This document shows positions 1,471-37,562 of a DNA stretch of 64,000 bases, one piece after another. This DNA comes from Takakia lepidozioides (Eukaryota > Plantae > Bryophyta). The notes beneath the pieces were generated by a model. The model had not been told where the DNA came from. It was given only the letters and a program-made list of their open reading frames with translations, and ran no database searches. The stretch covers positions 58,528,001 through 58,592,000 of the forward strand of contig CM060731.1 of the NCBI GenBank assembly GCA_030704615.1, in the 5' to 3' direction. Within the stretch, counting starts at the first letter, position 1. Every line of letters begins with the position of its first letter. Made by a program: the position numbers and the translations under genes.

Positions 1471-1510
1471 CATATTAGTGGTATCTAAAAAAGTTACTAT
1501 TTTTTAAATC

Positions 1511-4995: not shown

Positions 4996-5149
4996 TTTCA
5001 AGCTTCAATGCACCCTTGGCTATACTAGAAGTCTCCGTTACCATATAACCGTATGGCAAACAAGACTGGAAAGGTGTTCTTGGTGTGAGTTTGATCCACA
5101 GAATATCCTTTGGAATCCAATTCTTTACCAGAACAAGTTCCTCATGCAT

Positions 5150-7590: not shown

Positions 7591-7599
7591 TTGCACTGT

Positions 7600-8910
7600 T
7601 CCAAATTCGTCCAGTGTGCCAACGGAGGGTTGCCTATCCAAATGATTTTCGTTCGTTTCGAGACTTGGCCAGTATGTCCAATGTACCATCTAACAGGTCC
7701 CAGAGTAATGTGAGATCAATCGAAATTTGTTCAATGGGCCAAGGCGATCACGTGTCATCCAATTTTGTTCATTGCGATAAAGAAATCATGTTATGGGTGA
7801 ACGGGTAATGCACCCATTGAACGGATGAGGTTGAGGCTCATCTTTTGCCCGCATGTGCTTGAATATGTGTGCAACACATGTGCGGAAAAACAAGAGAAGC
7901 AACAAACATTTGCCTCCCCAACCATGCTCTCGCCCTTCCACCAATTTGCAATTAAATTGAGTTTAAATAAATTTCAAACAAATAAATAGGTTTACATTGT
8001 CTTTGATTGGGGTTTTCTGCTACATAACAATTTTATTTTTTGCTCAATCTTATTCTTTTGCTTCAACCCTCTCACCGTTACATCCCTGCAAAAATTTGGA
8101 CCAAACAAAAATGATTTTTTTAAAAAGTGTTATCTTCGCTCACTATTGCAAAACTCTTTATAAAGAGTGCATGAAAAGAAGACAAATCAAATTTGGAGTG
8201 CAAATTAGAGAAGAAACTGTGGTTTTGGGTCCTAATGACTTTTGTTCGCTACGAAATTTGGCACGCACGTTGTATATGTCGTCATTAGACATATGGCTAA
8301 AAAATAAAATGAAAAAAAAATCATGTGCACCCGAAACACCGTCCAACAGGTCCCAAAGTAATAGCATATCAAACGGAATTCGTCCAACGGTTGAACGGAT
8401 GGTTGCCCATCCAAATCATTTTTGTTTGCTTTCAAACTTTGCTAGTACATTTGGTACATTTGGTACACCCTCTCACAGGTCCGGGACTAATATGAGATCA
8501 ATCGAAATTCATTCGATGGCTGAACGGATGGTTGCCCATCTGAACGATTTTGGTTCACTTTCAGACTTTGCCAATGTGCTCAATGTACCATCTAAGAGGT
8601 CCCAGAGTAATATGAGATGAAACGAAATTCTTCAAATGAGCCAACAGATGGTTGCTCATCCAAATGATTTTCGTTCGCTTCGAGATTTGGCCAGTACATC
8701 CAATGTACCATCTCACAGGTCCCAAAGTAATATGAGATCAATCGAAATTCATTCATTAGGCCAATGAGGTGATCACGTGTCATCCAATTTTGTTCATTGC
8801 GGAAAAAAAATCTTGTCATGGATGAACGACCAATGCACCCATCGAACGGATGAGGTTGAGGCCCATCTTTTGCCCGCATGTGCTTGAATATGTGTGCAAC
8901 ACATGTGCGG
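7600..8910 (-). repeat. Right arm of the inverted repeat, plus a direct duplication (7620-7890 vs 8640-8910)
   Basis: Direct visual alignment with 4160-4995 and within the region itself. Confidence 0.8.
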
Positions 8911-9728
8911 ATCAAGGTGTACGGGATTTAGCCTTTTAAGAGTGGTTCACCCCACAACGTGCAATACACCTCAGTCGCCCTATGTTGGAAATGCAAGTTC
9001 ATGCAAGACCTGAAGTCCGCACAATTGTTTCTGGTTTGCACCACATGCCTAGGTCTAGGCCACAATCGATTGATGTGACACCATTTCACGAATTTTTTGC
9101 ATCTCGTGCTCGGCTACCTGAACTCTTTCGGAAAATCCTCTCATCCATCTTCTGTTAGTATGTTAAAGTCATCATATACTTCCCAATTCAAGTCATGCCT
9201 TGACCATTTGATTTTCTTAGGGGGCAGTCCATGTTCATAAGGGTCATCTATTCCATGACGCTAATTGTCCTGGCCCTCTGCCATTTTGTAACAATTGGAG
9301 CAACCCTAAACGACGTTTAATAATAAGTAACGGAAAATTAAACACTATTAAAGCAAACGTGGAAATGACTAAGAATTAATGAACTGCGATCTCGATCGAA
9401 AAATTACAATTGACCCTAAACCCATAACACGAAACGGGTTTGCATAAGTGCCATAATAATTATTAAAAGCTAATTTTGTAGAATGAAATGTTCTCGTAGG
9501 CAGAGGAGGGGCTATAGGAGCATTCTGCAACGATTTCACATAAATTGCAGCAAAAAAATCCCCCCCAGCCAATGGTCTCCTTCTCCACGTGACTACGTGT
9601 CATGGAATAGTTACATGTCACGTACATATAAGTTGTGTGGAGAGGAAGTGAGGGGAGAATGAGCCTCCCTTGGCTTATCCCCCCCCCCCTTTCATTCATC
9701 GGTCCAAGCAGAAGGCACAACTTCTAGA

Positions 9729-11040
9729 AGCGACCGCTATCATGGCGGTTGCTACATTTAAAAAAAACAACAAAAAAACGACCGCCAGTAATAGCGGTCG
9801 CTCTATTTTTTTTTAAAAACAATAAAAGCCAGTAACGACGGTCGCTCTATTAAAATAAAAATTAAAAAAAAAACGACCGCCGTTACTGGCAGTCGCAACA
9901 TTTTTAGAAGTTAAAAATATACAAGCGACCACCAGTAATGGCGGTCGTTCTATTTAAATAAAAAAATAAAATAAAAGCGACCGCCATAACTGGCGGTCAC
10001 AGCATTTTCAGAAATTAAAAATATACAAGCGACCGCCAGTAATGGCCGTCGCACTATTTAAAAGAATAAAAAAACAAAAGCGACCGCCAATAATGGCGGT
10101 TGCTCTATTTTTGTTTTAACAAAAAAAATGCGACCGCCAATACTGGCGGTCGCTGCATTTTCAGAAATTAAAAATATACAAGCGACCGCCAGTAATGGTG
10201 ATCGGTCTATGTTTTTTTTTTTTTAAATGACCACCAATAATGGCAGGCGCTCTATTTTAAAAAATAAAAAATAAAAGTGATCGTCATCACTGGCGGTCGC
10301 TGCATTTTTAGAAATTAAAAATATACAAGCGACCGCCAGTAATGGCGGTCGCACTATTTATAAAAAATAAAAAATAAATGTGACCCAATTACTGGCGGTC
10401 GATGCATTTTCTGAAATTAACAGTATTTTTAATATTTTAAAATATTTTAAAATATTTTAAAATAAAGCGACCGCCATATTATGGCAGTCGCTGTTTTTTT
10501 CTTTTTTTCTTTTTTTTTCTTTTTAAATATATTTAAAATAAAGCGACCGCCATATTATGGCAGTTGCTGGTTTTTTTATTTTTAAAATAAAGCGACCGCC
10601 ATATTATGGCAGTCGCTGGTTTTTTTTAATATTTTTTTAAAATAAAGCAACCGCCATATTATGGCGGTCGCTTGCTTTTTATATATTATTGAAAACAAAC
10701 GAGTGTCAATTCTGGAGGTCGCTTGTTTTTTATATATTTTCAAAATTATGCGACCAATACGGAGGTCGTTATTTTTCTTTTTTAAATTAGACGACCGCCA
10801 ATGCGACCGCCAATTTTGTTTTTTTAATAATAAAAATTAAGCGAACGCCATGTTGGCGGTCGCTGTTATTTCTATAATTCCGAAATATAAAGCGATCGCC
10901 AAAATTGGCGGTCGCTCTTATTTCTAAATTTCCGAAATATAAAGCGACCGCCAGAATTGGCGGTCGCTTTCATTTTATTATTTTCCACGACGTGGCTGCT
11001 TAAGTGACAATATTTTACCTGGTACTTTTTTTTACTAGAA
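9729..11040. repeat. Second GCGACCGCC/GGCGGTCGC palindromic array ending in a degenerate CACTA-like terminus
   Basis: Same unit as 1511-3095. Ends TTTTTTTTACTAGaa, resembling the reverse complement of CACTAGTAAAA. Confidence 0.75.
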
Positions 11041-18379: not shown

Positions 18380-19700
18380 AAAACCCCTACCTTAGTAAAC
18401 CTTATCCTAGTAAAATCCTTTACCCTAAACCCTTTAGTAACCCTAAAAGACCCTTAAGCATTTATCCCTAGACCCTTACCATTCCTTTTGCAAATTGGAT
18501 TGTACTATCCATACTATAACCAATAATGGTTATGGACCTTATGGTAATCCAAATCTCTTCTCCATTCTTTTTGCGCTACTTTTCTCGTTTGTTTTGGATT
18601 CACATGCACTTAATACCAAGTTTATATACTATTGTGTTTTCTATGTATCTTAAGACCAAGTTCCAACGACGAGTCATTAATTTAAATACTTGCACAATTG
18701 TCCGTCTCAATGACTCTTCCATAATATATATATATATATATATTTTCATTTTTTTACCATAATTATACACACCAAGATCTAGTGAGTGCGAGTCTTCCAT
18801 ATTTGTTTGTCCATTTATACCTTTACCATCACCCCTAAACCCTTACCCTTCACTTTACGCTTCCCTTAACCCTTCCATAGGCTTAAGCCGGACCCTTAGT
18901 ACCCTAAACCATTACTCTTACCATATACCAAAAACCTTTGTGTACTACTATAAATCCAAACCCTAAACCCTTACCCTGGCCTTAATCCTTACCCTAAGCT
19001 TAGCCTGACACTTACTACCCTAAACCATTACTCTTACCATATACCAAAAACCAGGTTAGTGTACTATCCTACTTACACTCCAAATCAAGTTATTGTACTA
19101 CCATGTGTAAGTCTACATATTTGTTTGTCCCTTTCTACCCTAAACCCCTACCTTTCCCTTTACCCTTGCCTTAATCCTTACCCTAAGCTTAAGCCTAACA
19201 CTTACTACCCTAAACCATTAGTACTCTTATCATATACCAAAAAACCAGGTTAGTGTACTACCCTACTTACACTCCAAACCAAGTTATTGTACTACCATGT
19301 GTCAGTCTTCCATATTTGTTTGTCCCTTTCTACCCTAAATCCAAACCCTAAACCCTTACCCTTCCCTTTATCCTTCCCTTAATCCTTACCATAAGCTTAA
19401 GCGTGATCCTTAGCACTCTAAACCATTACTCTTACCATATACCAAAAACCTTAGTGTAGTACCCTACTTAAACTCCAAACCTTATTGTACTACCATGTTA
19501 CCTCTTGTTAAATTTGTATCATTCTCTTTTAATGTTTTCTTTAATTTTGTTGCATAACGTATGATAAAATGATTACATAAATATCAAATTCCCCTTACAT
19601 TTTTTACATTCTACGGAGGTGAGTCTTCCATATTTGTTTCTCTCTTTCTACCCTAAACCCTTTAAAACCCTAAATCCTTCTCCGAATCACCACAAATTTG
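18380..19700. repeat. Telomere-like CCCTAAA-rich degenerate tandem duplications
   Basis: Repeated ACCCTAAACCC / CCCTTACC motifs in duplicated ~120-200-bp blocks. Confidence 0.7.
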
Positions 19701-20199: not shown

Positions 20200-20719
20200 A
20201 AAATGGGGTTGATTGGGAAATTCACCAAATGGACGTGAAGACAGCCTTCCTCTACGGTGATTTGCATGAAGAAATCTTTATGTGTCAACCTAAAGGATTT
20301 GAGGACGGTGAGAAAGTATGGCCGTTGAAGAAGTCATTATACGGCTTAAAGCAAGCCTCCCGAAGTTGGTATGAAAAAATCGATGCATACTTGATTTCCA
20401 AAATGTTCATAAGAGGAGAGGCAGACCACATCGTCTACTTCAAAACGGGGAGAGACATGTTCATCATCTTGTTCGTGGATGATTTGATATTGGGCAAAAG
20501 CTTAGACAAGATGAACGTGGTGAATGAGGAATTGAGTCGGGCTTTTGAGATGGTCGATTTGGGTGTAGTGAGTTTCATACTAGGAATTCAGATTTTCAGA
20601 AATCGAGAGAAGAAGGAGATTCGGCTAAGCCAAACTCGCTACATCAAGAAGATCCTTGCTAGATTGAACATGGAGGAATCCAAAGCGGTCGCTACACCAA
20701 TGGAGGTTGGAAGCAGATT
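20200..20719 (+). mobile_element. Ty1/copia reverse transcriptase, 5' part (interrupted by the SDR element)
   Basis: WEIHQMDVKTAFLYGDL...LKKSLYGLKQASRSWY...LFVDDL...ATPMEVGSR. Confidence 0.95.
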
Positions 20720-21046
20720 TGTCAAGTTATTTTACCACTAGTGTGAAACTAGCTAGGAAATAGCTAGCTTTTACATATTGACATTTGGGATTGGCCCAAG
20801 TGTCAATCCAGGGGTCAAGGCAGATTTAGGCCCTGGAGTGGTTATCTTCACGGCAAGCGCGGAAGGCTCATCTTTCTCGAGTTGAGCCTCACCGCGCCTA
20901 GCTATGGCGCCGTAGTGTGGATTCCCCATGGCGTGGGGTGCACTTGGCTTGACTTGTATTTGAGTGATGAGGTTATATATGCATGAGTTTATGCTTCAGC
21001 TTTGTGAGCTCGCATGAGCTTGTGCTTGTATTCTTCTTTTTTATCA
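20720..21046 (+). repeat. Terminal repeat A1 (327 bp)
   Basis: Matches 36383-36709 with about 3 differences by eye. Confidence 0.95.
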
Positions 21047-21062
21047 CTCGAGAAAGATGAGC
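21046..21062 (+). promoter_or_regulatory. Putative self-priming primer-binding site
   Basis: ACTCGAGAAAGATGAGC is the exact reverse complement of 20866-20882 inside A1. There is no TGG tRNA-type PBS. Confidence 0.8.
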
Positions 21063-22469
21063 TCGTATCTGTGAGTGCCAAATACGAGTTAGTTGTAGCA
21101 CTTGTGGTTTTTGCTTGAGAATGAGAGAAACCAAGTTGTTATGCAAGGAGCACCGTGGAGCTCTTGGTTGTTAGAAGCGGAGGCGATGTGGGTTACGAGG
21201 TGGTAGACCTTGGCATTCGATCTTCAGCTTCAGAGATGAAAGCACCATGCTGCAGGTAATTCCAGAGCACCTTGATGGTTTCAGATTGTGTACATGCATG
21301 AGCAAGCACGATTGGGAAGAGGACCAGTCAAGAACAGATTATAGTGGCTTTGGTGGCAAAACTGAGAACTGGACTTGGGAATGCGAGCTTTCATTGTGTG
21401 AAGGATTGCAAGACCAAGCGAAAGGGCTGATTTGGTTTGGGGCAAATCAGTGCACTTTGTGGAGTATGGTGAGATTGGGTTTCAATCTCGAGCTTCAGCA
21501 TTGAGAGGGCTCTTGTCATGGCAAGAGCAGGGCAGGAACAGGAGCTAAGAGGTGCGGTAAGGCCATGGAATGTGCACCTAGGGTTTCAGAGCTTGGAAGA
21601 AGAGCTCTTGCACCACAAGAGAAGTGTCTTGTGGCTGGAAATGTAAGCCTTAGGGTTTCAGGAGCTTGGCAAAGGCTGTGGAGTGCTTAGTCTTGTCTTA
21701 GAGAGCATCAAGGAGCCAAGGAGCCAAGATAGGGGGCTGATATCTCTTGTGTGAAGAGGTTGCATGTGTGGAGCATGTATTCAGCTCATTGAAGCTTCCA
21801 TCTTCAAGCTAGGAGGGCAAGCAAGGAAGTGGGAAAGGCTGACTTCCCTTATGCGAGGGCAATGCATGTGTGGAGCATGCTATCAGCCTGATGAAGGCTT
21901 GCACTTTCAGGTTTGTGGGTGCAAGAAATGAAGCAAAGGAGCTGATTCTCTTATGGTGAGAGTGGGGCATGTGTGGAGCATGCCTTCAGCCCATTGAGGC
22001 TCTTGTTTTCAAGCTTTAGAGAGCTAGAACAGAAGGTCTAGGGCTGGTTTCCACTTGGAGTGAAAGAAAAGCACTTGTAGGGCCTATGTGAGTTGGGGTT
22101 TCAACTTCAAGCTTGAAGGGAGCGCAACTCTTGAAGCAGCAGGTGTAGGGGGCCGAAATAGGCTCTAAGACAGATGTTATGGCCAAGGAGAGTGCTTGAA
22201 TGAGTGCTCACAAGGGCTGGGAACCAGCAGGGCTTGGTTGTTTGCCATTGAGTTTAGTGGCGTGTTTGGGGAGGCTAAGTGAGAAAGAAGGCTTGGTTTG
22301 TGGCAACCACCTCATGGCTTAGGGCTACTATGGTGGTGTGTGGGAGCCGAAAGAGCAAGAATACCTTGTTGATTTCCTCACAGCCGCCATAGCTCGGTGG
22401 AAAGAAGCCTAGAGTCCAAGAGACACAAACCCTAGCTTGGCGTGGCTAAACTGCTAGAGCGGCCATGGA

Positions 22470-24480
22470 TGGGGCTGTGACGGGCTGTGACGGGCTGTGT
22501 CAGGCCGTGCCTGAGGCCTGTGGGGCTGTGAGGGGCTGTGAGGGGCTGTGACAAGCTGTGCCAGTAGCATGTGGGGCTGTGACGGGCTGTGGCGGGCTGT
22601 GCCCTGTGGCCTGTGGGGCTGTGACGGGCTGTGCGGGGCTGTGACAAGCTGTGCCCAGTGGCCTGTGGGGCTGTGACGGACTGTGCGGGGCTGTGACAGG
22701 CTGTGCCCAGTGGCCTGTGGGGCTGTGAGGGGCTGTGAGGGGCTGTGACAGGCCGTGCCTAAGGCCTTTGGGGCTGTGATGGGCTGTGAGGGGCTGTGAC
22801 AGGCCGTGCCTGAGGCCTTTGAGGCTGTGACGGGCTGTGACGGGCTGTGACAGGCCGTGCCTGAGGCCTTTGGGGCTGTGACGGGCTGTGAGGGGCTGTG
22901 ACAGGCCGTGCCTGAGGCCTTTGGGGCTGTGATGGGCTATGAGGGGCTGTGTCAGGCCGTGCCTGAGGCCTGTGGGGCTGTGACGGGCTGTGAGGGGCTG
23001 TGACAGGCTGTGCCCGTGGCCTTTGGGGCTGTGAGGGCTGTGACAGGCTGTGCCCAGTGGCCTGTGGGGCTGTGACGGGCTGTGCGGGGCTGTGACAGGC
23101 TATGCCCAGTGGCCTGTGGGGCTGTGACGGGCTGTGCGGGGCTGTGACAGGCTGTGCCCAGTGGCCTGTGGGGCTGTGACGGGCTGCGAGGGGCTGTGAC
23201 AGGCCGTGCCCATGGCCTTTGGGGCTGTGACGGGCTGTGAGGGGCTGTGACAGGCCGTGCCTGAGGCCTTTGGGGCTGTGACGGGCTGTGACGGGCTGTG
23301 ACAGGCCGTGCTTGAGGCCTTTGGGGCTGTGTCGGGCTGCGCCGGTGGCCTTCGGGGTCGTGACGGGTTGTGAGGGCCTGTGACGGGCTACGCCGGTGGC
23401 CTTGGGGGCTGTGAGGGGCTGTGACAGGCCGTGCCTGAGGCCTTTGGGGCTGTGACGGGTTGTGAGGGGCTGTGACAGGCCGTGCCTGAGGCCTTTGGGG
23501 CTGTGACGGGCTGTGAGGGGCTGTGTCAGGCCGTGCCTGAGGCCTTTGGGGCTGTGACGGGCTGTGACGGGCTGTGACAGGCCGTGCTTGAGGCCTTTGG
23601 GGCTGTGTCGGGCTGCGCCGGTGGCCTTCGGGGTCGTGATGGTTGTGAGGGCCTGTGACGGGCTACGCCGGTGGCCTTGGGGGCTGTGAGGGGCTGTGAC
23701 AGGCCGTGCCTGAGGCCTTTGGGGCTGTGACGGGTTGTGAGGGGCTGTGACAGGCCGTGCCTGAGGCCTTTGGGGCTGTGACGGGCTGTGAGGGGCTGTG
23801 TCAGGCCGTGCCTGAGGCCTTTGGGGCTGTGACGGGCTGTGAGGGGCTGTGTCAGGCCGTGCCTGAGGCCTTTGGGGCTGTGACGGGCTGTGACGGGCTG
23901 TGACAGGCCGTGCTTGAGGCCTTTGGGCTGTGTCGGGCTGCGCCGGTGGCCTTCGGGGTCGTGACGGGTTGTGAGGGCCTGTGACGGGCTACGCCGGTGG
24001 CCTTGGGGGCTGTGAGGGCTGTGACAGGCCGTGCCTGAGGCCTTTGGGGCTGTGACGGGTTGTGAGGGCTGTGACAGGCCGTGCCTGAGGCCTTTGGGGC
24101 TGTGACGGGCTGTGAGGGGCTGTGTCAGGCCGTGCCTGAGGCCTGTGGGGCTGTGACGGGCTGTGAGGGGCTGTGACAGGCTGTGCCCGTGGCCTTTGGG
24201 GCTGTGAGGGGCTGTGACAGGCTGTGCCCGTGGCCTTTGGGGCTGTGAGGGGTTGTGACAGGCTGTGCCCATGGCCTTTGGGGCTGTGACGGGCTGTGAG
24301 GGGCTGTGTCAAGCCGTGCCTGAGGCCTTTGGGGCTGTGAGGGGCTGTGACAGGCTGTGCCCAGTGGCCTATGGGGCTGTGACGGGCTGTGACAGGCTGT
24401 GGCGAGCTGTGACGGGCTTTGAGGGGCTGTGACAGGCTGTGCCCAGTGGCCTGTGGGACTGTGACGGCTGTGACCAGTGA
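22470..24480 (+). repeat. G-rich minisatellite (GGGCTGTGAC/G decamer; ~40-50-bp higher-order units)
   Basis: About 2 kb of tandem units in the 5' leader of the SDR element. Confidence 0.97.
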
Positions 24481-25196
24481 GCTGGTCTGTGGTGGCCCGT
24501 GTTGACCTGTGGACGGCCTGTGCTGACTCGTGGAGGCACTGGTGGACTGCCTAAGGACTAGCATGTGGTCTGGAAGGCCGAATTTCGAAGCTCGTGGAGG
24601 GCGGTTTGAGGAGTATCTTCATGATATTCCCATGGTCATGCAAGTGAGGGAAGAGAGGAGAGGAAGAGGGTTGGGATGAGGGCATGCTGGGGTTAGGCAT
24701 TGCTTTAGCTTCTCTTCCTTGTAGTTTCCACCCTCTCATTAGGCCAAGACCTTTCCGTAGGTGGAGGCAAGAGTCAGTCCGGGTTTGGGCTGGGGTGTCC
24801 TTGCAGGAGCAACACCGTGGAGTTGTTTTTGGTGTGGGGGAGTTATCGTTCTGATTTCTTGTGTTTGGATCCCCTCCATACCTGCATGCTTGACTGTGCG
24901 CCATGCTAGTTTTGTGTGGGCGCTTGTTTTTATAGGTGATTGGTCCGGATTTGATCACCGGCCAGTCCTAGAGCATGCTGTCGATGGTGAGGCTGGGGTG
25001 ATGACCAGCTAGACCATCATTGTTTCTCCTGTGGTGAGGTTGGAGGTGATGACCAGCCAACCATAGGAGTGCTTGCGGTGGATGCAGGTAAAGGTGTAGG
25101 CTATGTTAGGAACTTTGTATTCCAAACCATAAGCCGCAACAGGTTCTCTACCCGGTTACCTTGTGGAGAGGGGGTTAGGGACATGTTCATGACCGG

Positions 25197-26211
25197 TTGA
25201 GTGTCAATACGGAGGTGCCACTAGTTGCTGGGGACAGTGCCGGTTCGAGCACTAGCGATACTAGTGGGTACACAAGACGAGGTGTGCGGTTTAGGCCACC
25301 TTCACCTCCTGTGTCTTCCACGGAAGGTTCTGATTCGGATTGTGAATCAGGAGGACTCATACCGGCGGTGCAAGTTGTTTATTTGCCATTGTTGTGGGAC
25401 ACAATGGAGGAGATGTATGGAGCTACCAAGGGGCCACGAAGGTACTCTGGGGCGGTGGGCACCATCGAGTTGGATGATTTTATCCAAGAGTTTGATAGTT
25501 GGTGTGATTTGCAGCAAATGCGCAATCCACAACTATTTACGCTGTTCATGGCATGGAAAGGGCTGTTTCAGCACCTTGAGGGGCCGCCTATGGATGATTA
25601 CCATGAGTTCAGGCAGGGGCATGAGGATGAGATCGAGGAGTGGAGGATGTACTGGTCACCCGACTATGTCTCCATCACTAGGGCACTAGAGCCACGAGGG
25701 CAGTGGCTACACCTGCCGCTGCACCGGCAACTTCAGCAAGTAGCAGAGGGACTAGTGGGACTGGTGGTACAGTAGCTACGACGTCCACCCAAGCCACTAC
25801 CGCACCAGCACTAGTACCCGTGCCTGCCTTCAACCATGTTGTGGAGTTCTTCGAAGAGTTGAGAGGGAACTACCAAGGGGTGAGGACAGAGAAGTTGCGG
25901 AGCTTGCAAGAGTTCCAACGGAAGCCGACCGAGAGCTTGAGGGAGGCTTTCACTCGCATGAGGCGCTTGATAAATGTAACCCAAGGGGTTACGGAAGCTC
26001 AGGCAGTCCAATTCTGGTATGGGATATTGGACAAGGAGCTGAGGAGAAGGGTGCGGGATGCAACTCTCCTACAAGCGGCCCAACCCACCTTAGCAAATGT
26101 GTTTTTGCTGGCAGAGCGGATAGAACTCAACATGGTGGAGGAACGAGTGGTCATGGTGGGATTTGCTAAGGAGACACCATGGGGTAGTGGTGCTCCTAGC
26201 CAACCACTACC
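25197..26211 (+). pseudogene. gag, 5' part, of the SDR element (frameshifted)
   Basis: ELDDFIQEFDSWC...LRSLQEFQRKPTESLREAFTRMRRL is a retrotransposon capsid-like motif. Confidence 0.75.
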
Positions 26212-26934
26212 TGTCGTGCACCTCCCTTCGGTAAGCTCCCCTTCACGTCATAGTTACTCGCTTGATGCGCGCGCCTGACTCCCAACCTGGCCGCCGGGCC
26301 AACTTGGAGCTTCGGTTGCTCACCGGGACATAACGGTCCCCCTTCGCTTCCCACTAAACCCTCCACCTATTTGGGACTAGTGAAATTCCCTTTGGTAGAT
26401 GGCAGTCTGGAACAGCTCCCCACTCTTTGGTCGCTTTCCGGCTCGCTCGCTTACTCATTAGTTTTTGGTCACCAACAGGCTTGCACCGTTCTCGGGGTTA
26501 CTACTCCCTATATATACTTCTGTAGCTGTCCGCGGGGGTTTCACAACCAGCCATGCCATTTTATGGCGAACCACCACGAAAACCCTCGACTCCCGGTGAT
26601 GAGTCGCGGTGAGTCTTGGCCCACTCACCATGGCCCTTATGGACCGTGATGAGTCCCAAGACTCCCCACGACTCCCACCACGAGGTCTCCGCCCCCATGG
26701 TGAGTCCTATGCCACCCCCACTAAGTCCCACTAAGCTACCACCACCCCTTGTGGAGCCACCCCCACCGCAACCCGGTGTGCGGGGCTCCACCTAGTGAGC
26801 GCCTCCGCCTCCTTGAGTGCCTTGGGCACTCAAGGGTGCTTCAGCCCCCCATACCTATCGCTGCCGCTGCCCCACCACAGGGGCAGCTCCTCATGTGTCC
26901 CGACCCCCTGCCCTCAAGGCAAAGGGCCGCGACA
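26212..26934 (-). repeat. Chromovirus 3' LTR
   Basis: Direct repeat of 32450-33177. Confidence 0.95.
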
Positions 26935-27784
26935 CACACCCCTACCAACAGGGAGTCGATGTCCTCATCGACTTGTCCATTTTGTAGAAACGAACATCCA
27001 AGTTGTGGCGTCCCACATCAAGGAGTTTGTTTCCGCACCATGGCGTCCCATGGCAAAGAACCAAACCCCACACTTGACTCTACTCTCCACTAGCTAGTTC
27101 GGCCGACTTCCTCCAAGTCCCGGCCAAGGGTGGAGCCTCTCCAGCTCCTCCCAGTGCACTCTTCTTGGCCTACTTCAAGGCCAAGGAACGATCCTCCCCG
27201 AGGATCGAATCGCCTTACTGCAACAACATTGCTTGCGATCGCTCATGATGCCGCTTTTGGCATCACCTTGAGCAAGGGTTCCCTGGAACCCTCTTTGACT
27301 AGGAAGATAACCTTGAACCAACCGTGCGCCCCAATCACTACAATTGGGTCCGCCTTGGAATGTTGGCCTGAGGTACGGGAACACGCCGAAGCCGCACTAC
27401 GACTTCGTCCCGAGGCTACACGATTATAGTACGTGAACGGAAGCACGTAGCTTCCGCGTTAGCCCGCACTACAAGGCAACCCCCTCGGTAGCGCAGTTAT
27501 AGTACGCGCACGCGCCAGGTGCGCACTAGCATGTGAACTCCCAAAGAAGTCGCAAGTTTCCTTGCCCCTTGGATGGGGGTCACCCGATTTTGGCACTACG
27601 CAAACACACGATTAACCCAATTTACCTCTCCCACTTTTATAAGCTAGCATGCATTCTACACACTAGCCAACCATACCATGCATCACCATTCCAAACAAAA
27701 TAGGACGTACAATATTTGGAACCCATTTCTTTTTTAACAAATTTTTGTACAATACAAGTTTTTGTAATCGGATTCCTAAGCTAG

Positions 27785-30700
27785 CTAAGCCGGGCTAAGC
27801 ATGCATTTCCTCCCCCACGCTCCAAGGTTGATGTCCCCATCAACGCTTCTTCCGCTTTTGAGGTCGCCCTTCGAAAACTGCACCGCCTCGGATGCGTTTC
27901 CCATTTCTGAGGCACGCACCCAAGATGCCTCCACATGATGATAGCCCTTCCATTTGACGAGATACTCCGTTTCTCGGTTCCTGAACCTCCTCGACTTAAG
28001 TATTGCCTCCACCTCGTACTCAGGTTCATTCTCATGATCCAACAGCATAGGTGGCGGACGCAACACTTGATGCCGATTCGGACGCGCTTCATCTTTGAAG
28101 TAAGGCTTCAAAAGGGAGACATGAAATACTGGGTGCACCTTGCTGTTTGCCGGTAGCTCCAATTCATACACATCCTCATTCATAACCTTCCGAATGCGAA
28201 AGGGTCCCGCATACGGAGGTACGAACTTTGGACTCACTTCCGGAGGTAGTCGGAAATTCTTGATGTTCAACCAGACCTCTGTGTCTGCCTCAAACTTTCA
28301 CTTCCCTCCGCTTCCGATTCGCCTGCCTTTCATACCGTTTCCTGGCTTTGGCAATGTTGTACTTTGCGAGCTTCAACAAACGCTCGCGTTCTTCCAATAC
28401 CGCCGCTACTGCCGGTTCTTCGACGTCCTGGGCGGCCCAACTTGTCGGCACCATAGGTGCTTTTCCATAGACCAATACGAAAGGGGAAACTCCCGTTGCG
28501 GAGTGTTCTGTGTTATTATAACAGAACTCTGCCGCGTCTAAGTGTTCCACCCAGTCTGTTTGGTCTGCCGACACGTAATTCCGCAAGATCTGCTTCACTA
28601 CGGAATTCACTCTTTCTGTTTGGCCGTCGGTCGTAGGTCGGAAGGCGGTGCTCATCTTCAGCCTCGTCCCCATCTTCTTCCAAAGTTGCCTTCCAAAATT
28701 TACTCGTAAACTTTGGATCGCGGTCCGAGACAATATCCTTCGGGACTCCATGATGCTTTAAGACGTGGGCGAAGTAAAGTCGCCCTGTCTCCTGCGCCGT
28801 TGCCGTCTCCTTGGTGGGGATGAAATGGCCCATTTTACTGAACCTATCCACCACCACCATGATTGCATCGAATCCTTTTGATAGCGGCATAGCAGTCATG
28901 AAATCCATCGAGACGCTTTCCCAAGTCCCCTCTGGAATCGGCAAGGGTTGTAACAGCCCCGCTTGCTTTTTGTACTCGCTCCGGTTTTGTTGGCATGTGG
29001 TGCATGTCTTGACATACTCCTCTGCCTCCTCCCTCAGTTTGGGCCAGAAATACTCTTTCTTCAAGAGTGCCGCAGTGCGCTTGGCTCCGCCGTGGCCCGC
29101 AAGCGGGCTATCATGGCATTCTCTCAAGAGGCTATCTCTGATCCCTCCCTTCGGCACGTAGAGACGTTTTTGCTTATACCGGAGCAGTCCATTTTGCAAG
29201 TGGAACTGCGATTTAACCCCCATCCTCAAGTCCTGCATCACGGACTTCGCCAGCTCATCCTTCCGGCAAGCCTTCCGGATCTTCCTTTGGAGCGCCGTCT
29301 CGCCCTTGTACACCAACAAGAGCTGCTGCTTTCTACTTAAAGCATCGGCCACCACGTTGTCTCGTCCCGGTTTGTACTGGATATCCACGTCGAACACTGC
29401 CAAAGTATCTTGCCACCTAAGTTGTTTTGGGGACAACTTGGGCTGCGTGGCAAAATATTCACCGTGACATTGTCCGTGAACACCTTCACTGGGTTGAAAC
29501 CAACATAGTGGCGCCAAAGCTCAAGACAATGCACCACCGCCTTCATCTCTTTTTCGTGCGTCGGCCACCGTCGCTCCACTTCATTCAGTTTCTTACTTTC
29601 GTAAGCCACTGGACGTCCATCTTGCATCAGTACACCCCCAATCGCGAAGTCCGACGCATCTGTATGTATCTCGAACGGACGATCGAACTCCGGGATTTTC
29701 AAGACTGGAGCTTCCGCCATCCGCTGCTTCAATTCAGCAAAAGCTTGGCCACAAAAGTGTTCCATGCCCAGACTTTAGATTTACACAGAAGGTCTGACAG
29801 CGGCCCCGCATCTTGGCAAAATTTCTCACATACTTCCGGTAATAGGAGGCGAGTCCTAGGAAGGATCGCACTCCCGGGACCGAAGTCGGAGGCTCCCAGT
29901 CCAAGATCGCCCTCACCTTTCTGTCATCCATTTTGATCCCATCCTGTGTAATCACATGCCCCAAGAACTCCACTTTCGTGACCCCGAATTCGCATTTGAA
30001 GCTTTGGCATACAGCTTCCCTTCCCGCAACTTTTGGAACACCCTTTTGAGGTGCTCCAGGTGTTCCTCCTTTTTTTCGAGTACACCAAGATGTCGTCGAT
30101 GTACACGATCACAAAGTCATCCAACCACTCCTGAAAAAGGCTGTTCATCAGCGTGCTAAAGGTCGCCGGTGCATTAGTGAGCCCAAAAGGCATCACCAAG
30201 AACTCATAAGAACCATACCTTGTCCTGCACGCGGTCTTCTCCTCATCTCCTTCCGCCACCCGAATTTGATGATAGCCGGAGCGCAAGTCGATCCGGCTGA
30301 AATACTTCGCTCCTGCCAACCGGTCGAAAAGGTCGTCGATCCTTGGCAAAGGGTACCGGTTTTTAATAGTCACCTTATTCAAAGCCCTATAATCGACACA
30401 CATCCGCAGCGTCCCATCCTTCTTGTCTGCGAATAGCACCGGGGCTCCGTAAGGTGACTTACTCGGCCGGATGTACCCCTTTGACATTAGATCCTTGAGC
30501 TGAGTTTTCAGCTCGACCAACTCCTGTGGCTCAACCGGTAGGGTGCCTTGGCAGGCGGTTCCGATCCCGGTATCACCTCAATCTTGTGGTCAACTCCTCT
30601 TCGCGGTGGCAAGCCGCTTGGTAAATCCTCCGGCATCACATCCTGGTATTTCTCCAAGATCCCCTTGATCCAATCTGGGCTCGGCTCCCCATCGCCTTCT

Positions 30701-32394
30701 CCCTTCACTTCTCTAATGTAAAGCAAAAACTGGGGCTCGTGTGCCTCCTCCACGGCCCACTCCCTTGCTGACAGAAGGTTTATTCGCCCTCCCACGGATT
30801 TGGGCGTTTCCGACACTCGTAAGGCCTCGCCACCATTCCCACATGGCAGCGTGACTACTCTCTTGCGGCCATCTATGACCGCTCCGGATTTGCTAAAAAG
30901 GTCATCCCCAAAATGAGATCCACTCCATCGATCTCGCAGATGGTGAAGTTCTCACGTCCCTCCCAACTCCCCAGTTGAAGAGGAACATCAAACGCCAACC
31001 TTGTCGCCAACTGTGGTTCTCCTTTGGCAGAACACACCTCAATAGAGGCCCCCACGTCACTTGTCGGGAGTCCCAACTTTCGCGCCGCCGCCGGCGTCAT
31101 GAAGGAGTACGACGCTCCTGTGTCCACCAACAACGACACGTTAGTTCCGGATAGTATCCCATCCACGAACAATAACTGACTCCCTTTACGCAGGGCGCCA
31201 GTTTCCTGATGCAACTCACAAGAATAGTTGCTTACCTTGCAAGTCCTGGCAACCACCGCTTCCACAAGCGACTGATGGTATCTTCCGACAGCTCCGTGGT
31301 TGCCCGAGTCATGTTCAATTGTCGAGGTTTCGTGCACTTCTTGGCCATGTGCCCGGCTCCCCGCAATTGAAACACACTCCATCAAAGGTTGCCTTCTGTC
31401 CGCCATAAGCCGCTCCACCCGCTTTTCCTTTCGAAGCACCGGGTGCCGCCTTGACGTGTGAAGGCCCTCCCTTCAATTTCCACGTGCCATTGTCGCCGCG
31501 TGGCCTATCCCACTTCTTTTCCGGTCGGAAGGAGTCACCTTCCCGCCGGGTCTTCTTGTGGTTCAGCTCCGTACGGCCTTGTCTCTCACCCCTAGGGACA
31601 TCCGAGAAACATTCAGCCCTCTCAATTGCCTCGTTCAAAGTCTTGGGTGGCTTCTCCTCCAACTTCCGCCTGGCCCATGGGGCCAGTTCCACCACAAAGT
31701 TGAAGACCATTTCTGGTTCTGCCATGTCCGCGACTTCGAGCAACAGCACATTGAAAGCCTGGACATACCCCCGAATGTCATCTGTTTGCTTCAAATTCCT
31801 TATCTTGTCCCGGGCAAGCCAGGACGCGTTGAGGGGCACAAACTGTCTCTTCATCAATTCCTTGAACCCACTCCAGTTCAAGGTTTCCGGGCTTGGGCCT
31901 CGGTCGTGAAGGCGTTTCTGCCACCATTATTGAGCATAGCCTCTCAAATAGGTGGGAGCCACTTCCACCCGATCCTCGTCACTCAACTTGGCCGCCCGGA
32001 AGTACTGCTCTAGCTCCAGGAGCCAGGTGTTGAGTGCCTTCCGATTTCGGACGACCTCGAAGGTGCCGGGTTCCTTAGGCTTCACTTTAAACTTTGCCTT
32101 AGTGGAAGTGGCATTAGCCGCCTTCAACACGTCTTTCAACGTCCCGCCAAACTGCGCCAACAACCCTTCCCAAAAGGCTGCCGGCATGGGAGGCATCTGT
32201 TGGTCGGTCGGAGCTCTCACGGTTTCCTCGGGCTCCGACTCCTCGGATTCCTCCCGCACTTGAGCGGCCTCGCTTTCAGAAACCTGCGTCGCTTCCTCAA
32301 ACGGCCGCTTCGGTGACACGTCGCCCCCATCGGGCTCACCAGGATCATCATCTTTTGGGCCGTTCCGCTTTCGCTTTGGCTTGCCCGACCCCAT
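27785..32394 (-). pseudogene. Chromovirus gag-pol (frameshifted)
   Basis: CFNCGEPG knuckle, LVDTGAS protease, YIDDIL RT, TDASDFAIG RNase H, H..GH..C..C and SMDF integrase, GPF motif, YEVEAILKSR...YLVKWKGY chromodomain. Confidence 0.95.
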
Positions 32395-32449
32395 GATGAG
32401 GCCAATCCTAAGGACGATCGCGTACTGAACTCTAAGCTCTGATACCAAG

Positions 32450-33177
32450 TGTCGCGCACCTCCCTTCGGTAAGCTCCCCTTCACGTCATAGTTACTCGCT
32501 TGATGCGCGCGCCTGACTCCCAACCTAGCCGCCGGACCAACTTGGAGCTTCGGCTGCTCACCGGGACATAACGGTCCCCCTTCGCTTCCCACTAAAACCC
32601 TCCACCTATTTGGGACTAGTGGAATTCCCTTTGGTAGATGGCAGTCCGGAACAGCTCCCTACTCTTTGGTCGCTTTCCGGCTCGCTCGCTTACTCACTAG
32701 TTTTTGGTCACCAACGGGCTTGCACCGTTCTCGGGGTTACTACTCCCTATATATACTTCTGTAGCTTTCCGCGGGGGTTTCACAACCAGCCATGCCATTT
32801 TATGGCGAACCACCACGAAAACAATCGACTCCCGGTGATGAGTCGCGGTGAGTCTTGGCCCACTCACCACGGCCCTTATGGACCGTGATGAGTCCCAAGA
32901 CTCCCCACGACTCCCACCACGAGGTCTCCGCCCCCATGGTGAGTCCTATGCCACCCCCACTAAGTCCCGCTAAGCTACCACCACCCCTTGTGGAGCCACC
33001 CCCACCGCAAACCCGGTGTGCGGGGCTCCACCTAGTGAGCGCCTCCGCCTCCTTGAGTGCCTTGGGCACTCAAGGGTGCTTCAGCCCCCCATACCTATCG
33101 CTGCCGCTGCCCCCACCACCACAGGGCAGCTCCTCATGTGTCCCGACCCCCTGCCCTCAAGGCAAAGGCCCGCGACA
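32450..33177 (-). repeat. Chromovirus 5' LTR
   Basis: Adjacent to the Met PBS; direct repeat of 26212-26934. Confidence 0.95.
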
Positions 33178-33684
33178 CTATCTCAACGTGCTCAAGGCAA
33201 CAAGGGGGCTCAGGTGAAGCTCAGGGAAGGGCAGAGAGGACCTCAGATGCAGGGGTCTCTCCCTTCATTTGCTGGCCAACAACGGGCGGAGGTGGTGTGC
33301 TGGACATGTGGAGGACCCCATGTCAAGAAGGATTGCCCAGAGGGAGGCAAAGGATCGGCACATGCACAGCCTGCACAGTTGCAGTGTGGGCATTGTGGCA
33401 AGCACGGGCATGGAGAGGCCCAGTGTTATGGTTTGCATCCTGAGTTGCGCCCAGGCCAGTTCCAAGGGAACAATGGTGGCCGGGGGCGAGGTGGAGCAGC
33501 CCAGAGAGGACGAGGTGGCCAGCCACGAGGCCAAGGGCAAGCTCAACGTGGCCAAGGACGCGGAGGTCAGGGTGTTGACGAAGGCATGGCCAACCGGCTT
33601 CAGCAGCTAGAGCAGAGGCTCGCTGCCATGGCTACAGCTCAGGTCATACCCTCTAAGGCCGGATGGTCCACCTCCTGCTCCTGA
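33178..33684 (+). pseudogene. gag, 3' part, of the SDR element (two CCHC zinc knuckles, RGG-rich)
   Basis: CWTCGGPHVKKDC and CGHCGKHGHGEAQC, followed by GGRGRGG repeats. Confidence 0.85.
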
Positions 33685-34228
33685 GGGAGGAGATATGGGA
33701 GGCATGGGATTCATGTGTGGAGCAGCACTACCACTAGTGCAGGTGGAGTCTGCTGCAGCCGTGACTCGAGGAGCAGCACGAGTTCCTGAGCCACGAGGTG
33801 CAGAGGTGGAGTTGGATCCACAGCGTGGGGAGGCAATCCGTCAGGCTAGGCTTCCTCAGTCATTCACATTGGCGGGACAGTGTCGACGCCATCCATGGCA
33901 CCTAGTTCTCGCCCGACAGTTATCGAGGCGGAGGTTACTATGCCATTGGGGAGAGCTATACGGGTAGCACCACTACCTAGTGTTGCCAAGGCTGCGGCAG
34001 CTAGTGTGCTGCTAGGAGCGGCCACATCTGTGTGCCAGGCTCCATTGTTCTCGGCTACCATGATTGCGACGCCAGGGGTAAAACCAGCTGAGGTGTTCAG
34101 TCTGGCAGCTACACTCTGTGAGAGTGGGGAGGTTACTTCATCTTCTGTGGAGATAGTGGGAGGTGTAGTGCCGGAGGGATCCTCGGATTTGAGGGTCAAG
34201 ACTGCCATGGCAAGCTGCAGCTGCCAGG

Positions 34229-34700
34229 TTGATGGAGCTGCCAGCTAGGCCAGCCATTGAGCGCGCCATGGTGACACCTGGAGTTGTCATGTTAGACAAC
34301 CAGGATGGCATTTTCTGTTTGAGTGGACCGGCAGGCAAGAGGTACCGGCCACTGCGGGTCTTGTTGGACTCGGGAGCTCAGCCATTGATGCTGGGCAGAG
34401 CTGCTATTGCAGGCTTGGGCCTCACGGAGGCGGATATGGAGCCTTGTCATTTTCAGATACAGACGTCTCTGGGAGGATCGGAGCAGGCTCGGGGCATGAC
34501 ACGGCGTGAGTTGGCTATCAGACTACGGCCGGATCACCCTACAGATGGCTCAGTGATGCGAGCCAAGGCCATTGTGACAGACGCGGTCTCATACGATGTC
34601 CTGGTTGGTGGGGCAGTGTTGTATCCTATGGGCTTCACCCTGGATTTTTGGGAGGAGTCAGCTTCCTATAGGTCTGCATGGCAGTCAGGGAAGGGTCGGC
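34229..34700 (+). pseudogene. Retroviral-type aspartic protease of the SDR element
   Basis: VLLDSGAQPLML catalytic motif and YDVLVGG C-terminal motif. Confidence 0.85.
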
Positions 34701-35072
34701 GTGTGCAGCTTCCTATGACGTTCATAGGAGGAGTTGCGGTTGCCCAGCGAGACAAGATGCCGACACTAGCAGCATTCACAGCGGCAGTGAGTTGGCCTAG
34801 AGAGTTGCTTGAGGGCAATGCTCATTCAGAGGATGTACCACCTCCGGAGAGCAGGATGACATGTATGGTATGGCGGAGTTGCCTACCATGGTTTGCTCAG
34901 ACTCCATTGTGGGGCACGAGCAAGGATTTGCAGCGGGATGCTGATCGACGGGTGCAACAAGCCTGGGTGAGGCTTTTGTACCGTCAGGAGAGGAGGAGAG
35001 TGTGGGGATTGCACCAGGACCACCTCAATTGTTTCCATTGGACACCACACCTAATTGTGTGGCAGTATCCGG

Positions 35073-35457
35073 ATGAAGGCATTTGTCTTCTGGACTTGTT
35101 TGGCGGGATCAGCACCGGATTGGCTGCTGTGTTACAAGCAGGTGTACGAGTTCGGTGTTACCTGTATGTGGAGAGGGATGAGACTGCATGACGCGTTTCA
35201 CTTCGTCATGTTGCTCAGTTGGTGCAGCGGTACCCTGAGTTGTTGTCGGTGTCTGCAATTCGTGGATATCAGCAGGCCTTGCCAGCAGACATTTCGTTGC
35301 TGGGGGCGCAGGATTTGGAGCGGGTTGGCTCCATTGATCTGGTAGTGGCAGGTTGGCCCTGCCAAGGGCATTCATCAGCCGGGCATGGCAATGGATTGCG
35401 AGACTCGAGGTCGGGTCTGTTTTGGGAGATGGTGCGGGTTTTGCGCTACTTGCAGCT
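35073..35457 (+). pseudogene. Dnmt3-like DNA cytosine-5 methyltransferase domain (N-terminal half) in pol
   Basis: Motif I LDLFGGISTG, motif II YVERD, motif IV DLVVAGWPCQGHS (catalytic PC), motif V GLRDSRSGLFWE. One in-frame TGA at 35189. Truncated before motif VI. Confidence 0.9.
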
Positions 35458-35987
35458 TCGAGAAAGTCATGCCCATGGCTTTTGAGAATCTTGCCATTGC
35501 ACAGCACCGTGATACGTTGAGGTATGCCACTATACGTGGTGGAGGATATCGTCCTGGGGTTCGGAGGTTTAGCCCTGGTGACTATGTTTATTTGCAGCAG
35601 ACTGCTCCTACGACTCTGGATGTTACTGCAGGGCGTGTTATTCTGAGGGTTCGAGAGGTGTTGCCCTCAGGGGTCCTGATCTTAGAAGGTCGGGATGGCA
35701 TGACTTGGAAGGACCATGTGCGTAATTGTGCGCCATGTCACTTTCCCAATGTCAATGGCAGAGTTGACCCAAATTTGGCAGTGGTACCTGCAGGTTTGAG
35801 GTGCATGCTCTGTGGGTCTGCCAAAGGGGCAACCACCATGCCGGTGTGTGATCGATGCTCAAGGGGTTGGCATATGGGATGCTTGACACCACCTCTTGAG
35901 AAGGTTGGTTGTGTCCACACTGCTTGGGATAGTGGCAGTGGACATGACTGGAGGCAGCTAACAAGACATGGGAGGCCAAGCTCATAG
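35458..35987 (+). pseudogene. Integrase C-terminal region plus PHD finger
   Basis: AFENLAIAQHRD...RRFSPGDYVYL resembles the gypsy post-integrase region. CMLC...CDRCSRGWHMGCLTPPLEKV continues as WLCPHC in a shifted frame, completing a C4HC3 finger. Confidence 0.85.
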
Positions 35988-36181
35988 GAGTCAATACATG
36001 AGATCCCAAGCTCAAGTTCACAGGTTGCAAGACGGCGACTAACGATGGGGTAACTCTTGCACCCGGCCTCTTGATCTATCGAGTTTGAGTGTAGTAGGGA
36101 TAGTGGTGGAGGACTTAGTGAGGCTATGGTCACTATTACATCTTGTGGCTACCTGGACTTAGAGGGACCTAAGCACCAGCT

Positions 36182-36191
36182 AGGGGGGCGA
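36182..36191 (+). promoter_or_regulatory. Polypurine tract of the SDR element
   Basis: AGGGGGGCGA immediately precedes repeat B1. Confidence 0.75.
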
Positions 36192-36898
36192 TTGTGTGGA
36201 CTAGTGACTGCCATAGTGGGCAGCATAGTGGCAGCCTAGTGACTGACTAGTTGTAGCCTAGTGGTTGGACTAGTGGCTGGACTAGTGGTGGACTAGTGGT
36301 ATACTAGTGTGTGGTGTGCACATGTGTTGTGTGGTTTTGGACAACGATGTAGTTGTGTAGCGATATGTATGCGCACGACAGCTGTCAAGTTATTTTATCA
36401 CTAGTGTGAAACTAGCTAGGAAATAGCTAGCTTTTACATATTGACATTTGGGATTGGCCCAAGTGTCAATCCAGGGGTCAAGGCAGAGTTAGGCCCTGGA
36501 GTGGTTATCTTCACGGCAAGCGCGGAAGGCTCATCTTTCTCGAGTTGAGCCTCACCGCGCCTAGCTATGGCGCCGTAGTGTGGATTCCCCATGGCGTGGG
36601 GTGCACTTGGCTTGACTTGTATTTGAGTGATGAGGTTATATATGCATGAGTTTATGCTTCAGCTTTGTGAGCTCGCATGAGCTTGTGCTTGTATTCTTCT
36701 TCTTTATCATTGTGTGGACTAGTGACTGCCATAGTGGGCAGCATAGTGGCAGCCTAGTGACTGACTAGTTGTAGCCTAGTGGTTGAACTAGTGGCTGGAC
36801 TAGTGGTGGACTAGTGGTATACTAGTGTGTGGTGTGTACATTTGTTGTGTGGTTTTGGACAGCGATGTAGTTGTGTAGCGATATGTATGCGCACGACA
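36192..36898 (+). repeat. Terminal repeats B1 (36192-36380), GC, A2 (36383-36709), B2 (36710-36898)
   Basis: B1 and B2 are both 189 bp with about 4 differences by eye. A2 matches A1. Confidence 0.95.
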
Positions 36899-37562
36899 GA
36901 TTCAACAAGGAGATGGAACCAAAAACAACGAAGAAGAACGATGAAATGAAAAATGTTCCGTACAAGTGTGGAGTTGGAAGCCTCATGTATGCGATGGTGG
37001 CTACAAAACCAGACATTGCATTTCCAGTGAGTACTTGGGAGGTACATGCAGAATCCTGGCAAGGAACTCTGGCAAGGAGTTAAAAGGGTGCTTCGCTATT
37101 TGAAAGGTACACAAGAAGTGTGCCTTACGTACAAAAGAATTGATTGTGGTGAAAACCTGATCGTAGAGGGTTACAGTGATACAGACTGGGGAGGGGATCT
37201 TGACGAAAGAATATCTACTTCTGGATATTGCTTTCTACTTTGCGGAGGAGCTGTAAGTTGGAATAGTAAACGCCAAGCTACAGTAGCACTGTCGTTGACT
37301 GAGGCGGAGTATATGGCCGTGACATATGCAACGAAGGAAGCTATGTGGTTGCGAAAGTTGCTTGCAGACTTGGGTTTCACTCAAAAGGAAACCAACAAGA
37401 TTATTAGTTGACAACCATGGCAGTATACAACTCGCGCGAAACCTTGTACACCATGTTCGGACGAAGCATATAGATATTCGACACCATTTCATCAGGGAAA
37501 AGCTCGAGACAGAAAGTATATGGGCGTTCGTTTGAACAATCTGAACAGTACTTGAGTGGGAG
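36899..37562 (+). mobile_element. Copia RT C-terminus, RNase H and PPT (frameshifted)
   Basis: PYKCGVGSLMYAMVATKPDIAF...GYSDTDWGGDLDERISTSGY...[28 protein letters not shown]. Confidence 0.95.

Follow-up and report, generated by a model that had tools for sequence, protein, structure and literature searches.

One question is raised by the locus studied here: why should a Gypsy retrotransposon carry, inside one of its own ends, a short palindrome made of its two tips set head to head? The window (the whole stretch of 64,000 nucleotides that was analysed, positions 58,528,001 to 58,592,000 of contig CM060731.1 in assembly GCA_030704615.1 of Takakia lepidozioides) contains at 36377-36386 the sequence GACAGCTGTC, a perfect 10-bp palindrome which cannot be extended further and which consists of the right tip GACA, a 2-bp spacer GC (36381-36382) and the left tip TGTC. 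We counted 100 perfect 10-bp palindromes in the window; as a mere palindrome GACAGCTGTC is no more than chance would give. Its position in the element is not chance. It is the sole occurrence of GACA-nn-TGTC in the window, and the case for it rests on position and conservation. The left end of the insertion reads GATT-TGTC and the right end GACA-GATT, the GC being missing at both and present only at the inner junction. The preliminary description had read the palindrome in this way, as right and left terminus around a GC absent from the integrated ends, and both the sequence and a comparison of the window with itself bear it out.

The element is 16.2 kb long (20720 to 36898), lies inside a copia RT gene and has the order A1-internal-B1-GC-A2-B2, with a 4-bp duplication on either side (Table 1). 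When the window is compared with itself by BLAST, the two A repeats show 3 differences in 327 positions and the two B repeats 4 in 190; at the A2/B2 joint one A can be assigned to either side. The nested chromovirus serves as an internal control, and no internal palindrome is found in it. A deletion at about 35470 took RT, RNase H and the integrase core from the window copy, which is non-autonomous and would need these enzymes in trans. A 5-bp duplication (AGATT, with the element ending at GAC) also fits the window copy; it was rejected, an exact 5-bp duplication being found in none of the seven both-ended relatives. The LTRs of the nested chromovirus are about 3.0% diverged, against 1.4% for the repeats of its host element (7 differences in 517). 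If this excess is not due to chance, the 16-kb defective unit would have been copied in trans at a time when it already contained the nested element.

Table 1. Features of the element and of its insertion site, in positions of the window
Feature	Position	Strand	Basis or remark
Left TSD copy GATT	20716..20719	+	In copia RT gene (RVT_2 at 20202-20738); 4-bp length set by relatives
Repeat A1, begins with left tip TGTC	20720..21046	+	Self-comparison
Predicted self-primer at transcript 5' end, complementary to PBS	20866..20881	+	16-nt perfect complement
Predicted primer-binding site (PBS), adjoins A1; self-priming type, without TGG start	21047..21062	+	
GC-rich tandem array, 51-bp period, in 5' untranslated part	22470..24470	+	
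gag, frameshifted	25416..26209	+	Retrotrans_gag E 8.5e-4, below curated cut-off
Nested ordinary chromovirus with two whole LTRs, 5-bp TSD (CTACC/CTATC)	26212..33177	-	
gag zinc knuckles, beyond nested element	33180-33411	+	Continuation of gag at 25416..26209
Protease (LDSGA motif at 34361) and N-terminal half of cytosine methyltransferase, broken	34193..35470	+	
Methyltransferase motifs	35087 and 35351	+	Domain is PF00145 in intact relative L081
Integrase C-terminal part and PHD finger	35475..35918	+	
Polypurine tract (PPT, G run), directly 5' of B1	36182..36191	+	Same place in related families
Repeat B1, right-tip sequence GACA at end	36191..36380	+	Self-comparison
GACA-GC-TGTC tip-to-tip junction	36377..36386	.	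Sequence, contig ends, related loci
Repeat A2	36383..36709	+	Self-comparison
A2/B2 joint, PBS-side end fused to PPT-side end, no added base	36709..36710	+	
Repeat B2, right tip GACA at end	36709..36898	+	Self-comparison
Right TSD copy GATT; copia RT resumes beyond	36899..36902	+	

To what class does the element belong? The integrase C-terminus has 22 longer relatives, with source names including Marchantia polymorpha and Calypogeia fissa, which carry varying subsets of RT, RNase H, integrase zinc finger, rve and PHD, and the DDE residues of the integrase are present in their alignment. No tyrosine recombinase domain was found among these 22 relatives, nor in the four ORFs scanned of L081, an intact relative which encodes gag-protease-methyltransferase and then RT-RNase H-integrase-PHD. 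The appeal made earlier to an integrase of retroviral type is well founded in this respect. The best PDB match of the L081 pol is Ty3 Gag-Pol (E 6.7e-100, which is a match score and not a tree). The Ty3/Gypsy domain order gag-protease-RT-RNase H-integrase is that of L081; the window copy keeps gag, protease and the integrase C-terminus, its middle being deleted. The DDE integrase, the TG...CA tips and a TSD within 4-6 bp are likewise those of Ty3/Gypsy elements. Two whole LTRs at the ends of the insert, bounded by PBS and PPT, are not found. Since the PBS follows A, the PPT precedes B and the tips lie inside B-GC-A, the element is a variant of Ty3/Gypsy and not a standard member. Troyka was dropped as a candidate (CG...CG tips and a 3-bp TSD in the portion of its description available, PMC12440569), and among the viral contigs searched no relative appeared.

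Ngaro and PAT elements have split direct repeats in the order A-coding-B-A-B, as in the window element, and use a tyrosine recombinase. One may then suppose an element of DIRS/Ngaro type, with a tyrosine recombinase acting in cis or in trans on the B/A junction: the order of the repeats is the same as in Ngaro/PAT and SymbioDIRS. Elements of the DIRS/Ngaro/PAT group have a tyrosine recombinase and no DDE integrase, whereas in the present lineage that domain is absent from the 22 relatives and the four L081 ORFs and the DDE integrase is intact. The CA tips, the loss of the spacer and the 4-bp duplication of varied targets also speak against such a recombinase, and we give this explanation next to no credence.

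Two side observations concern the intact relative. In L081 (3-6635), the stop of gag-protease-methyltransferase is followed directly, in the same frame, by RT-RNase H-integrase-PHD, which suggests stop read-through. The record that holds the intact element of the lineage (L081, L082) is titled as a cyanobacterial genome assembly, where eukaryotic contamination is likely.

We then asked how far the junction is conserved. The sample consisted of 82 loci, the best 80 of 502 metagenome matches and two from genome contigs; the junction is intact in 30 of them and 22 stop at the first B, while the remaining 30 (too short, B truncated or deleted, or no B found) were set aside. Assemblies of metagenomes can skip or fuse repeats, and the metagenome loci are to be read with this caveat. 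The spacer is 2 bp long in all 30 intact junctions. A scan allowing 0-8 bp gave 24 matches at 2 bp and four at 0 bp, three of the latter being flanks which happen to begin TGTTA and one being off-site. At 97% identity the 30 junctions form 23 clusters, or about 20 insertions after merging of shared flanks; by cluster, the spacer is GC in 11, AC in 10, GT in one and AT in one. The length of the spacer is thus fixed, while perfect symmetry may not be needed, since AC occurs in 10 of the 23 clusters, including all six of one family. The conservation of palindrome and 2-bp spacer across copies and families, put forward as a check in the preliminary description, holds without exception in these junctions for the length of the spacer; the perfect palindrome is not universal. 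The A repeats of the three related families and of the window family have no BLAST match to one another, and in the B repeats only the last 40 bases match, between two of the families.

Could an ordinary LTR element have been rearranged after insertion, by tandem insertion, recombination or an error of assembly, with the palindrome as a by-product? The window copy is decayed, with a nested element and a large deletion, and 10-bp palindromes are common. The same junction with the same length of spacer is nevertheless found in 30 loci of three related families, in the window copy and in a curated algal library, and TSDs flank the A...B unit. Rearrangement is refuted already by this conservation across families, and we hold it to be very improbable.

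Of 36 deviations from the 14-bp core, 34 are C>T or G>A. Both spacer bases at 36381-36382 sit in CAG/CTG (CHG) contexts and, given these contexts and a decay made almost wholly of C>T or G>A, the junction is likely to be methylated in chromosomes. The element family itself encodes a cytosine methyltransferase.

The tips lie where the preliminary description had placed them: flanks of contigs diverge there, and the TSD is 4 bp long in each of the seven both-ended copies of the main family (five exact, two with one mismatch). Copies in the window's own genome were examined through contigs of public sequencing runs. In four runs, three of which come from one sample, the contigs over 36120-37000 run out into flanks of differing sequence precisely at 36380, 36383 and 36898 (15-22 contigs at each of these loose ends, with an agreement of about 0.4), and at 36709 they pass into the internal region. 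A run from another study has loose ends again at 36380 and 36383. No substitution or indel at 3% or more was seen inside the palindrome or at the A2/B2 joint, a weak result as contigs break at the tips; 23 substitutions and 7 indels are listed elsewhere in this 881-bp stretch. Contig depths in one small run are about 75 at the PPT/B1 boundary, 72 near A2/B2 and 142-157 in the bodies of B and A, as would be expected if two A and two B were present in most copies, but depth is not a measure of copy number.

Where would reverse transcription put the LTR of such an element? Directly after A1, 16 bases are perfectly complementary to positions 147-162 of A, while the best of 2000 control stretches reaches 10 nt. 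Pairing between PBS and primer is predicted, with differing sequences, in L003 (16 nt), L019 (15), L081 (12) and L075 (11), and the predicted PBS and primer co-vary in four families; in some decayed copies the pairing is shorter or lost (0-11 nt). A G-run polypurine tract lies 5' of B1 in every family. The left end that reverse transcription would define varies (TT, GT, CT and GT in four families); the internal site is conserved. In the standard scheme, a PBS and a PPT so placed give a cDNA of the form B-GC-A-internal-B-GC-A. From the predicted self-priming site after A and the polypurine tract before B, we infer that the LTR of reverse transcription is B-GC-A, with the tips in its middle. Self-priming is known in Tf1/Sushi and Tcn1 elements, where the PBS likewise pairs with the LTR of the element itself instead of a tRNA; in these elements both ends carry whole LTRs and there is a chromodomain, whereas the window lineage has a PHD finger (PMC6317226, in the portions available). 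As described in those portions, the survey needed two whole LTRs for detection and could have missed the present layout.

We consider it rather probable that the cDNA is joined end to end before it is cut, and that the palindrome is the tip junction inside the LTR and the site at which the integrase cuts. Judging from the positions of PBS and PPT, self-priming after A and plus-strand synthesis from before B would give linear B-GC-A-internal-B-GC-A. Its outer ends, A and B, would then be fused precisely, as in a 2-LTR circle; here the joint is observed and its cause is supposed. A DDE integrase would next nick after CA on both strands of the palindrome of the left LTR, which would yield two processed ends at once, with 2-nt 5' overhangs. 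The geometry proposed earlier, a cut after CA on each strand leaving CA-3'OH ends and 2-nt 5' overhangs, follows from the sequence. Insertion with a 4-bp stagger and loss of the GC overhangs would give A-internal-B-GC-A-B, the product observed; in sequence, the inserted copy is equal to what an end-joined cDNA opened at the left-LTR palindrome would be. The second palindrome would be retained in that part of the 3' LTR which would template both LTRs in the next round, and its being kept is accounted for if, as predicted, both tips of the next generation are copied from it. The left site is perhaps favoured, the left LTR being the one which would become double-stranded first, which is speculative.

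There are precedents in other systems. According to the accessible portions of the papers concerned, the integrase of prototype foamy virus cuts its own LTR-LTR palindrome in vitro in this manner, the DDE enzyme nicking after CA with 2-nt 5' overhangs (PMC1180852), 2-LTR circles of HIV-1 can feed integration (PMC4372172), and end-end junctions with short spacers are what copy-out/paste-in transposases insert (PMC7780238).

The joint between A and B deserves attention in this respect. In the main family 10 of 11 copies agree in its length; L010 carries an additional base there, and in L082 one base is apparently missing. B1 and B2 show no fixed difference across seven copies, and their distance within a copy (0.073) is slightly smaller than between copies (0.075-0.090), which is what recopying of B2 from B1 would give. 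Ordinary ends, as defined by RT, were met in none of the loci examined. Against our reading by cutting of an end-joined cDNA we counted the missing mirror layout A-B-GC-A-internal-B, which random opening of a 2-LTR circle should give just as frequently: none of 12 distinct left ends shows it and, among both-ended copies, it stands at 0 against 5 of the present layout (one-sided p 0.03). An asymmetry must therefore be added to the model of a free circle. The joint lengths of L010 and L082, the family with AC only, an extra gc in a Chlamydomonas consensus (Gypsy-18_cRei) and the insertions that lack the junction were counted against it as well.

The missing mirror layout would be accounted for if the left palindrome of a linear cDNA were cut and both new ends inserted, A and B being joined later by host repair, or B being recopied by a jump of RT from the right end to the left end. 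This explanation also accounts for L026 (3246-3878, the same locus as L027, 1297-1929), where the sequence ends B-GC-A-PBS followed by an inverted A (179 to 1) which stops exactly at the tip CA, and which was inserted without an A/B joint at that LTR. This single locus fits plus strong-stop DNA folding back at the self-primer site and then being cut at the internal tip, and so speaks for our own reading too. Moreover, 17 distinct insertions have the form A-internal-B, or at any rate stop at the first B, as expected from two cuts on linear DNA; they also fit a 1-LTR circle or later recombination between B1 and B2. A crude proxy of age does not separate copies with the junction from those without it (0.917 against 0.918, p 0.86). 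Host end-joining in the chromosome should, however, leave indels, and the constancy of the joint in 10 of 11 copies goes against it, while the products of a jump of RT would be those of the circle, and sequence does not distinguish the two. We regard the cutting of linear cDNA as unlikely, and prefer to it the cutting of cDNA already joined.

The trimming of a 2-bp extension off CA ends is ordinary integrase chemistry. The tips could have arisen during reverse transcription, through priming or a stop at the palindrome, with B2 taken from the 3' end of the RNA as in the template models for Ngaro/PAT, and the integrase would trim no more than 2 nt from ordinary linear ends; the layout is that of split direct repeats (PMC5890265, legend of Fig. 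4c). The conserved PBS after A and PPT before B, found in four families and in Gypsy-18_cRei, are not at the tips, and B1 and B2 are not separate lineages. Such an origin of the tips seems quite improbable to us.

Does the site retained in the inserted copy promote secondary cleavage or rearrangement, as had been suggested? Re-cutting and re-insertion should give unmatched TSDs, and TSDs match in five of the six junction-less copies with both ends, so that the suggestion finds no support. A small deletion across the palindrome in L046/L047 and unmatched flanks in L075, a copy of another family, are found at one locus each and have ordinary explanations.

A library of Chlamydomonas repeats contains comparable elements, among them Gypsy-7a_cRei and Gypsy-18_cRei of Chlamydomonas reinhardtii (Craig et al. 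2023, PMC9940879, its accessible portion, inspected by eye). Nine of the 11 palindrome matches listed there lie directly 3' of a G run. The layout A...B-gc-A-B is complete in Gypsy-18_cRei, with a PBS after A and a PPT before B; for the extra gc which its consensus carries beyond the right GACA we found no explanation. Gypsy-7a_cRei has the same layout with a B of 8 bp, against 190 bp in the window element, and is active, with 86 new insertions in one laboratory strain. Both are PHD-bearing Gypsy elements with a G run, a short B, a GACA-gc-TG junction and then A; according to the legend for Gypsy-7a_cRei, the right LTR ends in 8 bp which are missing from the left one. This element differs from ours also in its junction, GACA-gc-TGTG, and in a PBS which begins TGG. 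It is classed as an LTR element and, in that portion, no mechanism is proposed.

A methyltransferase domain of the PF00145 family was found in L081 and P0017, with methyltransferase motifs in the window copy; we take the enzyme to belong to the Dnmt3 class, from its motifs and from the paper on KnitGypsy-Dnmt3, not from a tree. As in KnitGypsy-Dnmt3, a Dnmt3-like domain in a Gypsy polyprotein goes together with DIRS-like repeats. The latter element, from Klebsormidium nitens, combines Gypsy domains with a Dnmt3-like methyltransferase, and its legend gives a DIRS repeat structure (A-coding-B-A-B), here compared by description only; tips, TSD, palindrome, primer sites and mechanism are not described in the accessible part of the paper (de Mendoza et al. 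2018, PMC5890265). A 2026 preprint names a streptophyte Gypsy-DNMT3 and, in its available part, does not discuss repeats. As far as these accessible parts go, the layout is known already from the KnitGypsy-Dnmt3 legend, and partly from Gypsy-7a_cRei. What is new is the conserved Ty3/Gypsy junction, with att sites which would have been relocated by the mechanism we infer. No naming of the junction or of the route for these elements was met in the published literature searched; one may exist in subscription papers, Repbase reports, theses, supplements or figures.

In foamy virus and HIV-1, the palindrome is the joint of the circle and belongs to a side route (PMC1180852, PMC4372172, as far as accessible); in the window lineage the palindrome lies within the LTR as an inherited site of its own, and the joint of the circle is kept in the inserted copy. 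IS3/IS911, IS30 and IS256 resemble the lineage in that a DDE enzyme integrates a circle by cutting a short-spaced end-end junction. Their copy-out/paste-in transposase builds this junction from flanking DNA and the spacer varies (PMC7780238, accessible part), whereas the junction studied here is part of the element's own sequence, keeps a spacer of 2 bp and is copied by reverse transcription. The lineage differs from Ngaro/PAT by its DDE integrase, CA tips and 4-bp TSD. We lean slightly towards a still broader view, in which an old Gypsy lineage of green plants and algae would have end-joined cDNA, resembling a 2-LTR circle, as its obligatory substrate of integration, att sites moved off the cDNA ends to an encoded LTR junction with a 2-bp spacing, and a retroviral-type integrase working in the manner of an IS-circle transposase.

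Whether 2-LTR circles are precursors of integration is an old question of retrovirology, and they are regarded as dead ends or as a reserve (PMC4372172, in its accessible portion). The inserted copies of this lineage keep the end-to-end joint and bear on that question. The activity of Gypsy-7a_cRei in laboratory Chlamydomonas makes it testable by genetics and with oligonucleotide substrates of 10-14 bp. If our reading is true, it would show an integrase moving from the processing of ends to the opening of a junction, and would link LTR elements to the chemistry of IS circles. LTR finders which need two whole LTRs could mis-annotate or miss such elements in algae and seed-free plants.

Finally, some other features of the window may be noted. 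At 1490-3090 and 9720-10980 lie AT-rich arrays of units of about 50 bp, each with the hairpin GCGACCGCC, accompanied by long inverted repeats at 4154-4997 and 7901-8749; these arrays may be subterminal repeats of a DNA transposon. Older rearranged fragments at 5152-7601 resemble the nested chromovirus to 75-86%, in its gag and LTR region, and at 18790-19500 there are degenerate CCCTAAA-type repeats resembling interstitial plant telomere sequence.
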